A stretch of 64,000 bases of DNA from an uncultured virus (IMG/VR IMGVR_UViG_3300020036_009184) (IMGVR_UViG_3300020036_009184), one strand, 5' to 3'. Shown: positions 50,001 through 58,537, counted from the first letter of the stretch. Numbers and translations: made by a program. The notes: generated from the sequence alone by a model not told the origin.

Positions 50001-50096
50001 GGCGAAAAAGTTTGTGGTGTGTGGTAAAAAGTGTTGTGCCTGTCTCATCAGTACCGGGCGGCAAACGGTAGACGGGGACAAATGCCCCGTTTCGAC

Positions 50097-50252
50097 TTAT
50101 TGTTTTATTTCTTGAATTTCTACAACTGTTCGCGGTTCTCCTTGGTGTTTCTGGATTGCCCATTGTTCGGCCTCATCGTATGAAGCAAAAAAGAGTGTTG
50201 CTATTATGCGAATGCCTTTTGGCCCAAAGTAGGTAATTTCGTACTTCTTCAT
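50097..50252 (-). CDS. Small hypothetical protein
   Basis: MKKYEITY..., ATGA-coupled. Confidence 0.45.
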   Translation of the reverse strand: MKKYEITYFGPKGIRIIATLFFASYDEAEQWAIQKHQGEPRTVVEIQEIKQ

Positions 50253-55576: not shown

Positions 55577-55941
55577 AGATCGTCGCTCCTGCGCAGTATT
55601 TTGGGCCTTAAATCGAATTATAGATGGATATTCCGACATTGACAATAAGACCATTGGTGAAGCGGGTTGATATTATCGCTTTTTTCAAGGATGTGCTACC
55701 TGGTGCGGGAGTTACGGGGTATTGTGAGGTAATGGTGAAGCGGAGTTTGTATCGGAATATCCGCCTTTGTTTTGGGAGGTTGTTTGGTGGTGCTATTGTG
55801 AGTGAGCAGGATAGGTTCTGGTGTAAGATTGGTGGGGTGAGTTATCTTGTTGTGGCCTTTCATGGTGGACATAGAGATGTTGTGGTGTTGGGACATTCTG
55901 TCTTTATTGAAATGGAGAAAGTAGTTTTGAAGAAAAAAAAT

Positions 55942-56091
55942 GGGAATGAAGCACATTAGGATGTGCCCTGTATGAAAGTCGATAGTTGTCGCCATATTGT
56001 TTATCGAGAACGATATTTTGGGCAACATTCCTGGGGAACAGGATTTAGGCAGGCCGTCAGATGGTAGCCGGTTCGATTCCGGTCATTTCCA
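55942..56091 (+). ncRNA. tRNA-like RNA (150 nt) with a 100-nt insert in place of the anticodon arm
   Basis: Acceptor GGGAATG/CATTTCC-A, D-arm GCAC..GTGC, T-arm GCCGG TTCGATT CCGGT. Confidence 0.65.
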
Positions 56092-56130
56092 CAAATAGGT
56101 CCAACGCATAGAGTTTTTGTTGGACTGGTA

Positions 56131-56273
56131 GCGATGGTGGCGGAATGGCAGACGCGCTGTAAGTACCCTAAAAGAAACGCATAGAATGGGGGAACTCGGT
56201 AGACATACTGCAAGCGTGAGCAGTAGGACTTTGTAAGTTTAAATCTTTGCAGGTTCGAATCCTGCCCATCGTA
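56131..56273 (+). ncRNA. tRNA-like RNA (143 nt) with a roughly 93-nt insert
   Basis: Acceptor GCGATGG/CCATCGT-A, Leu-type D-arm TGGCGGAATGGCAGACGC, T-arm GCAGG TTCGAAT CCTGC. Confidence 0.7.
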
Positions 56274-56476
56274 CATCCATAAAAGAGTACACTGAGAGTA
56301 TGTTTGAGTCCTAGATGCTACCGAATAACCTGGTCGGTCGGGAAACGCGGGAAGGATGTTGATGGCAAATGGTAGGTGTACGTTGAACAAGAGCCGGTAA
56401 CGGCATAGAACGCCTTGGTGTTTTTATCTTAGGTTGACCAAGGCACTTTTAAGAATCAATTCAATTATCATAAATT

Positions 56477-58174: not shown

Positions 58175-58187
58175 CCTGATTGTCGTT

Positions 58188-58256
58188 GGCGCTATGGTGT
58201 AATGGTAGCACGCTCTCTTAAATGAGGGAAGTCCAGATTCGATTTCTGCTGCGCTG
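58188..58256 (+). pseudogene. Degenerate tRNA, anticodon not assignable
   Basis: D-arm GTGTAATGGTAGCAC; stem CTCTC/GAGGG with a 6-nt loop TTAAAT; T-loop TTCGATT; imperfect acceptor stem. Confidence 0.55.
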
Positions 58257-58537
58257 CAATATTTGTTTTTAATGAGGTAAGGTCGTCTTGCTGGTGCTCC
58301 GATTTATCGCAGCCGTCCGTAATGCACTGCGGATTCCGTGCCTGGACGGTGAGATGACCGAAGCCTTAAAAAATGTTCCGATGGGGAAGAAAAGAATGTT
58401 TGAAGTTGGAGAGATAGCCTTACGGGCCAATCGCTCCGTAGAGCCCATGCGGTGGGTGGTATTCACTGTCAATGAAACGTATTTGCCGTTGATAGAAGAG
58501 AATCCTGCCGATTATAAGAAAATTCGTAAAGTAAAAA

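Follow-up and report, generated by a model that had tools for sequence, protein, structure and literature searches.

We report two adjacent genes, E1 and E2, in the window, i.e., the whole 64-kb stretch of uncultured viral DNA that was analysed, and we interpret them, with a probability of about 0.55, as genes for two non-decoding tRNA-derived small RNAs of the same kind as RNA1/RNA2 of phage T5 and RNAC/RNAD of phage T4. Each keeps a complete tRNA top half, comprising the acceptor stem, the D arm and the T arm; some 80-90 additional bases take the place of the decoding loop, and neither has a usable anticodon loop. Presumably unable to decode, they would act as tRNA mimics. Judging by covariance scores, E2 is a new member of a large family of phage RNAs with a tRNA-Leu frame, which includes T5 RNA1, and E1 reads as an orphan on a tRNA-Ala-like frame with G3:U70 and A73. 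Phages T4 and T5 have been known for about fifty years to carry tRNA-like stable RNAs, and the same kind of gene would now be present in an unrelated crAss-like phage from wastewater. The pair has alanine marks on one RNA and leucine marks on the other, and AlaRS and LeuRS both ignore the anticodon.

Two tRNA-framed RNAs are encoded in tandem

Both strands of the window were scanned with a frame detector that demanded a T arm with TTCRANN, seven of seven acceptor pairs and a D stem-loop with GG. It reported E1 and E2 only, and nothing in 20 block-shuffled windows (Table 1), confirming the original prediction, where intact acceptor stems, D arms and T arms had been seen in the sequence. The distance between the D and T arms, predicted as 93-100 nt, was measured stem to stem as 100 nt in E1 and 93 nt in E2. 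Both middle regions begin with N-CTGTA, in agreement with the CTGTA expected at the insert start, the hairpins named beforehand were all present in the sequence or the folds, and the hairpin GTCCAAC/GTTGGAC proposed to lie between the two RNAs proved to be real.

Neither RNA was called by ARAGORN at default settings. With the intron option (-i), a check suggested at the outset, ARAGORN modelled both, but with implausible anticodons. At Rfam gathering scores no family matched E1 or E2, and no group I or other intron family was found, in line with the earlier comment that a typical group I intron would not fit into inserts this short. No Rfam family, tmRNA model or group I intron accounts for either RNA.

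Table 1. Positions of E1, E2, their parts and neighbouring features in the window (counted from its first nucleotide).
Feature	Position	Strand	Description and basis
Type II hammerhead ribozyme	50034-50097	-	Rfam
Upstream ORF	55624..55959	+	111 aa; last 18 nt overlap E1 start
E1, tRNA-Ala-framed RNA	55942..56091	+	G1 to A73, genomic tail CAA to 56094; frame detector, MFE cloverleaf, ARAGORN -i
E1 acceptor 5′ strand	55942..55948	+	pairs with 56084-56090, GGGAATG/CATTTCC, 7/7 pairs including G3:U70
E1 D arm	55951..55966	+	GCAC / ATTAGGAT / GTGC; extendable to 6 bp; sequence and fold
E1 closing stem, 5′ strand CCTGT	55967..55971	+	pairs with GCAGG 56049-56053 in the MFE structure
E1 alternative partner of CCTGT, ACAGG	56038-56042	+	ARAGORN -i and splice scan
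E1 77-nt insert	55972..56048	+	three-way junction with hairpin A (55985-56026) and hairpin B (56029-56043); MFE = centroid
E1 variable arm	56054..56066	+	CCGT-CAG-ATGG plus TA; MFE, 4 bp
E1 T arm	56067..56083	+	GCCGG-TTCGATT-CCGGT; sequence, frame detector
Spacer hairpin between E1 and E2	56098..56126	+	9 bp, 11-nt loop; z = -2.53, 5/200 shuffles fold as well
E2, tRNA-Leu-framed RNA	56131..56273	+	G1 to A73, tail CAT to 56276; frame detector, model R1
E2 Leu-type D arm	56140..56155	+	3-bp stem, 10-nt loop; fits every invariant family-alignment column
E2 middle	56156..56248	+	93 nt; U at position 48 = 56248
E2 hairpin TACTGC/GCAGTA	56206-56225	+	one clear hairpin of the middle
E2 motif ACTGCAA	56207-56213	+	35 nt before T stem
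E2 weak anticodon-like arm (UGU)	56225-56241	+	4 pairs; adjoins T arm
E2 T arm	56249..56265	+	GCAGG-TTCGAAT-CCTGC; sequence, family alignment
Interval between E2 and next gene	56274-56476		200 nt, without ORF
Hairpin CCTTGGT/ACCAAGG	near 56412-56441		7 bp, followed by CACTTTT; uncalled by simple terminator scan
Defective or odd tRNA	58187-58257	+	ARAGORN and Rfam tRNA model

Anatomy of E1 and E2

The unconstrained MFE structure of E1, which is also its centroid, is a cloverleaf in which 77 nt, enclosed by the 5-bp stem CCUGU/GCAGG, form a three-way junction with one interrupted hairpin of 15 bp and one small hairpin. Next come the variable arm (4 bp) and the T arm. The whole molecule folds with z = -2.61, only one of 200 shuffles being as stable. 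The original prediction had the anticodon arm replaced by the insert; in E1 this does not hold, as the MFE structure keeps the 5-bp closing stem and the 4-bp variable arm, so that the anticodon loop rather than the whole arm appears to be replaced.

Alanine identity in bacteria is given in Table 1 of PMC9976931 as A73, G2-C71 and G3.U70 (major) together with G4-C69 and G20 (minor), with no anticodon element. Of these, E1 has A73, G2-C71 and G3.U70; it has A-U at 4-69 and A at the D-loop position, i.e., G4-C69 and G20 are absent. The features first described for E1, a length of 150 nt with a D stem, G1-C72, G2-C71, G3-U70 and A73, were all read in the sequence, and A8 is found in place of the usual U8. 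The ends of E1 match the tRNA-Ala(GGC) of a 735-kb uncultured megaphage at 11 of 14 bases at the 5′ end and at 26 of 30 in the T arm plus acceptor (hand count).

The acceptor stem of E2, GCGATGG/CCATCGT, forms 7/7 pairs including a G1-U72 wobble and is followed by A73. Its middle contains no canonical 5-pair anticodon arm. Compared with shuffles, neither the insert (z = 0.09) nor the whole molecule (z = -0.61) of E2 stands out, and the description 'structured insert' is therefore true of E1 only, the insert of E2 being no more stable than shuffled sequence.

Reading the folds, we noted a possible alternation shared by E1 and E2. An ACAG or GCAG further downstream is able to pair with the 5′ CUGU, which leaves 24 nt before the T arm in both RNAs; alternatively, this downstream strand closes a local hairpin with an internal copy of CUG.

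E2 and T5 RNA1 belong to a large family of Leu-framed RNAs

IMG/VR was scanned with a pattern that joins a Leu-type D arm to a T loop over 75-105 nt, which gave at least 117 loci; as the pattern is fixed, the family counts are biased by it. Among the matches listed, 7/7 acceptor pairs form across the insert in 94 of 116 when small shifts are allowed and in 90 of 116 at zero shift, where a perfect 7-bp acceptor stem has a chance of about 0.1% per register. The Leu-frame set among these matches comprises 82 unique sequences, 70 of them with unrelated inserts. Conservation extends beyond the search pattern to T8 G9 G10 C11 and to U48, the latter present in at least 90% of the Leu-frame sequences among the matches listed. 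The family invariants can be written as T8 G9 G10 C11 G12 G13 A14 A15 .. G18 G19. A G A C G, plus U48, and E2 carries all the invariant and nearly invariant columns of the family alignment (A1), U48 included. The discriminator A73 is found in 63 of the 82 sequences among the matches listed and is missing in the other 19.

In the covariation count, the acceptor pairs had been selected for beforehand and the pattern itself dictated two T-stem pairs; the three pattern-free T-stem pairs are paired in 70/70 sequences, with double changes in 34, 10 and 14 sequences. The T-stem covariation score was 0.728, as against 0.188 after shuffling and at most 0.124 with the partners slid. A covariance model (R1), built from 70 IMG/VR Leu-frame sequences with E2 left out, recognised E2 over its full length with 69.8 bits (E 1.3e-15). 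The same model gave 51.6 bits for phage T5 RNA1 and 28.2 bits for the annotated T4 tRNA-Leu. Since R1 was built without E2 and scores both E2 and T5 RNA1 highly, we place the two in one family. E1 obtained 12.4 bits (E 0.31) and has a D arm of another type; on these scores it is not a member of the T5 RNA1 family.

Between lineages the inserts of the Leu-frame RNAs are hypervariable, and in one subfamily the insert is conserved over 6 contigs with one compensatory change. Canonical anticodon arms occur 8 times in 71 Leu-frame sequences, no more often than in shuffled inserts (4.2 +/- 1.9). Removal of a single segment yields a canonical tRNA in 11 of the 71 (5.3 +/- 1.8 in shuffled inserts) and cannot do so in the remaining 60. 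Clear exceptions are two tRNA-Leu(UAA) genes (L004:390-525 and L099:290-441) with inserts of 52 and 68 nt between U34 and A35, at what we take to be the position of the cyanobacterial group I intron. Their anticodon stem and variable arm are normal, and the inserts are far too short for a group I intron.

The design of T5 RNA1, a leucine-tRNA frame with a variable insert of about 75-105 nt (a range bounded by the pattern), is thus very common, with at least 117 matches in IMG/VR and at least 117 in a scan of species genomes with the same pattern. Among the matches listed from the species genomes, 44 of 117 have 7/7 acceptor pairs. We did not adopt this count as evidence for the family, as on our reading many of the matches are tRNA-Leu fragments or duplications beside whole tRNA-Leu genes. 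Three Leu-frame RNAs of about 135 nt (L129, L174 and L235), with 7/7 acceptor pairs and related inserts, lie in cyanobacterial assemblies, one of them a complete chromosome, and the design may therefore not be confined to phages. No paper on the Leu-frame family was found in the mostly non-subscription literature searched.

One IMG/VR contig (L113:1-440) encodes a true permuted two-piece tmRNA (Rfam 55.9 bits; tag GKTVNLFNAPVRQAA according to ARAGORN) located 30 nt upstream of a Leu-frame RNA, which is the same order as alanine-type E1 and leucine-type E2.

Comparison with known tRNA-like RNAs

In GenBank, T5 RNA1 and RNA2 are annotated as 'tRNA-like stable RNA with unknown functions' and T4 rnaC and rnaD as small stable RNAs. 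T5 RNA1 (NC_005859 30501-30644) resembles E2 in its Leu-type D arm, its T arm and the pairing of its acceptor stem over a long insert, and resembles E1 in having a 5-bp stem that closes the insert and a variable arm. It differs from both in that the insert sequences are unrelated, and in that it is part of a large tRNA cluster, whereas E1 and E2 are isolated. T4 RNAC and RNAD (species 1 and 2 RNAs) are, like E1 and E2, two adjacent small stable RNAs; they come from the tRNA region, RNAC has a T arm, and their roles are still given as unknown in PMC3014915. They show no clean frame of 7-bp acceptor stem and D arm by the frame detector; there is no sequence relation to E1 or E2, and R1 matches the T arm of rnaC only (14.2 bits). 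PMC12685909 describes a convergent SNP in rnaD of a T4-like phage evolved on a semi-permissive host, which hints that tRNA-like stable RNAs matter for host-specific growth.

The tRNA-like domain of tmRNA shares with E1 the alanine identity G3:U70 and A73, the non-decoding character and the retention of acceptor and T arm, but E1 has a D stem, is 150 nt long, lacks both a tag frame and pseudoknots, and stays under the Rfam threshold. Lak megaphages carry oversized, insert-bearing tRNA genes that are likewise missed by standard bacterial tRNA finders; these were assigned isotypes and anticodons once their introns were removed, in the account given in PMC6784885, whereas E1 and E2 yield no coherent decoder. 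A further parallel to E2 is provided by minimal tRNA-Leu variants, in which, in the experiments summarised in PMC9976931, a Leu frame with A73 and the D/T-loop contacts was charged without an anticodon arm. Those variants are engineered deletions, whereas E1 and E2 are natural genes with an added domain.

A second insert class in class I tRNA frames

Searching IMG/VR for class I D arms combined with 60-90 additional nt gave at least 120 matches, and among the 120 listed, 69 have 7/7 acceptor pairs. The motif AC[AT]GC[AG]A lies in the insert of 29 of the 68 unique class I frames among these matches, compared to 1.1 in shuffles. Its distance to the T stem downstream is 21-35 nt, except in one case (11 nt), and it follows a covarying hairpin. 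A contiguous anticodon arm is kept in 22 of the 68 insert-bearing frames among the matches listed. The insert of this class (loci L241 onward) is a segment of 40-70 nt in the 5′ strand of the anticodon stem. Its parts are an A-rich linker, a hairpin that covaries and often reads CA-UGUNNG-UG, and ACAGCAA, which is invariant and usually lies some 28 nt ahead of the T stem; examples are L346:54-175, L353:50-170(-), L268:50-165(-) and L260:54-171, and in several cases its removal would restore a normal tRNA. Tandem clusters of three to four different oversized tRNA frames, 118-127 nt long and on one strand, were seen in L079 and L032 (also L107, L095 and L112); the hairpin-ACAGCAA module is common to their inserts, which looks as though a single element had spread across the tRNA cluster. 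We found no paper carrying the AC[AT]GC[AG]A motif in the mostly non-subscription literature searched, and the class is apparently undescribed so far.

The ACTGCAA of E2 falls within the 21-35 nt range. Yet the module model gave E2 3.6 bits only (E 1.9, filters off), and we therefore do not place E2 in the ACAGCAA class. We also considered a preference of such inserts for the frames of synthetases that are blind to the anticodon, and rejected it: class I frames with inserts are at least as common, and G3:U70 is found in just 1 of 68 among the matches listed, so that there is little to read into the pairing of an alanine with a leucine frame.

Homologues and local constraint

In INPHARED, blastn and megablast found no homologues of E1 or E2, the only matches at E<=10 being T-arm-sized and to ordinary tRNAs. 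Patterns for the two RNAs had no match in IMG/VR, JGI metagenomes or species genomes, and blastn-short with both inserts against all loci collected gave no similar sequence. As no insert homologues were found, the insert folds of E1 and E2 are thermodynamic predictions to which covariation does not contribute.

A contig of one sequencing run (X2) is identical to the window over 55981-56291 (0/311 differences), and the next contig differs at 12 of 601 positions; a contig of another run (X8) is identical over 55970-56174. The contrast of 0/311 beside 12/601 is a weak sign of constraint on the E1/E2 region, and the conserved insert with its one compensatory change in the Leu-frame subfamily is another. 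The identical X2 and X8 contigs may simply come from the same strain. Contigs of two RNA runs cover the upstream ORF and none spans E1, which has no bearing on expression either way. A relative in an RNA library departs from the window sequence after 55896. A 175-nt contig from an RNA library joins unlike sequence to E2 from its 6th base (56136-56193, 2 differences in 58 nt); it keeps the D arm of E2 and the first 38 nt of the insert, and its acceptor 5′ strand is different. This pattern suggests that the surroundings of the cassette may be exchanged in a modular fashion.

Possible mode of action

If E1 and E2 are indeed tRNA mimics that do not decode, they would be co-transcribed with the neighbouring plus-strand genes, cut by RNase P at G1 and trimmed at the 3′ end with repair of the CCA, a repair that we propose because the genome reads A73-C-A and not CCA. 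They could then fold into the L-shaped corner of a tRNA. E1 would be chargeable by AlaRS through G2-C71, G3:U70 and A73. E. coli LeuRS is reported in PMC9976931 to charge tRNA-Leu variants without anticodon and variable arms if A73 and the D/T-loop contacts are kept, A15-U48 and G18G19 being essential; E2 would correspondingly be chargeable through A73, A14/A15, G18G19 and U48. From these identity elements, E1 and E2 would probably be charged by AlaRS and LeuRS, respectively. Charging of the entire Leu-frame family is excluded, since 19 of 82 members among the matches listed have no A73. The mimics might engage factors that bind the tRNA body or the acceptor end, such as synthetases, EF-Tu, tRNA-directed host nucleases or aminoacyl-transferases, and the lineage-specific insert could be the effector or a block to ribosomal use. 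Among the readings offered originally, tRNA-scaffolded small RNAs or decoys fits best, as the family of E2 is conserved in its frame, variable in its insert and includes T5 RNA1.

We put forward tentatively a more specific proposal, which we think unlikely as it stands: E1 and E2 might be deliberately made chargeable, anticodon-less mimics that accept alanine and leucine and never decode. They would serve as decoys or sponges for host factors attacking or sensing the tRNA body or acceptor end (tRNA-directed immune nucleases, 3′-end-modifying toxins), or as amino-acid donors for non-ribosomal transfer, with the insert acting as a switch via the mutually exclusive pairings of the 5′ CUGU.

Alternative explanations

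The tRNA frame might be a scaffold only, giving RNase P and 3′-end processing as well as nuclease resistance to an insert that carries the whole function (protein-binding or antisense) in an RNA that is never charged. Engineered tRNA scaffolds stabilise RNAs inserted in them, and inserts that vary so much between lineages while being conserved within one subfamily, together with the missing A73 in 19 of 82 family members among the matches listed, are what such a scaffold would lead one to expect. We nevertheless regard this reading as doubtful: the family keeps bases relevant to LeuRS beyond the needs of folding (A14/A15, U48, and A73 in 63 of the 82 listed), the insert of E2 is not notably structured, and for an antisense function the longest reverse-complement match in the window is 13 nt, compared to 11-12 nt by chance. 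That E1 and E2 are intron-bearing tRNA genes, whose middle is removed by a phage or host activity to give decoding tRNAs, was one of the original readings and is now quite unlikely. It can draw on the ARAGORN -i models of both RNAs, on the 'enigmatic' tRNA introns mentioned for Lak megaphages in PMC6784885, and on the hairpin-AC[AT]GC[AG]A module that marks anticodon-stem inserts of the listed class I frames, with the similar ACTGCAA of E2 and its weak UGU arm next to the T arm. In E1, moreover, two 5-bp stems close a 7-nt loop (with U33 and R37) after removal of 70 or 59 nt, and at least two such stems arise in 3.6% of 500 shuffles. The anticodons that E1 could expose (UUU, GUU, GAU, GAA, GGG, GAG) all conflict, however, with its alanine acceptor identity. 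E2 has no single-segment solution at four or more Watson-Crick pairs and a negligible score with the ACAGCAA module model, no group I, group II or other Rfam intron family matches the insert, and 60 of 71 family members among the matches listed are not made canonical by one deletion. Nor was a joint seen in the contigs assembled from the runs, which are weak material for this purpose.

It is improbable that we are looking at dead genes, i.e., a tRNA-Ala and a tRNA-Leu broken by a small insertion and now drifting. CTG direct repeats do enclose segments of 60 nt (E1) and 51 nt (E2), TA stands at the start of each insert (on our reading of the sequence), the insert of E2 shows no excess of structure, and another defective tRNA lies in the neighbourhood (Table 1). 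But neither E1 nor E2 shows damage in the three frame helices or in the tertiary-contact bases, the same frame is kept with covariation in at least 90 independent phage contigs, and the 0 differences in 311 nt beside 12 in 601 nt run against drift. As for the suggestion that E1 is a minimal tmRNA, we find it very hard to sustain. G3:U70 and A73 are there, tmRNA is the best Rfam match of E1 through the tRNA-like ends only, and in contig L113 a true permuted tmRNA immediately precedes a Leu-frame RNA, in the E1-E2 order; the score, however, is 20.2 bits against a gathering score of 47, ARAGORN -m finds no tmRNA, and E1 has a full D stem and no pseudoknot. There is also no open single-stranded tag frame, as the stop-ended frames of E1 run through strong hairpins (reading of three frames).

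The phage and the neighbourhood of E1 and E2

By its encoded proteins, the window belongs to a crAss-like phage. These proteins include an SU10-type capsid, a crAss muzzle-like protein, a 2761-aa polyvalent virion protein, a primase-polymerase, a beta clamp, RadC, RuvA and a GroEL-like protein. DNA near-identical to the window is contained in wastewater, sludge and freshwater runs of 12 studies. The GroEL-like protein shares 94% identity with one on a 5.3-kb contig of a Saprospiraceae MAG, other relatives reaching at most 50%, and this match hints at a host among the Bacteroidota.

The three proteins adjoining E1 and E2 gave no homologues in an IMG/VR search, and the upstream ORF had none in a set of 5.8 billion proteins. 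In relatives of this ORF from two runs, 13 of the 19 differing sites are at third codon positions (hand count). A promoter and terminator scan gave nothing useful; the phage probably does not infect an E. coli-like host. The ORF-free interval that follows E2 contains a 7-bp hairpin (Table 1).

E1 and E2 do not lie in a large tRNA cluster. The sole tRNA nearby is a defective or odd one, 1.9 kb away and just upstream of the RuvA-like gene. ARAGORN reports it as 'tRNA-???' with a two-base anticodon, and the Rfam tRNA model gives it 31.5 bits; its anticodon loop is 6 nt long (TTAAAT) and would grow to 8 nt with the last pair open, and the acceptor stem contains two mismatches. Elsewhere in the window, between two minus-strand ORFs, a type II hammerhead ribozyme scored 42.8 bits against an Rfam gathering score of 37.
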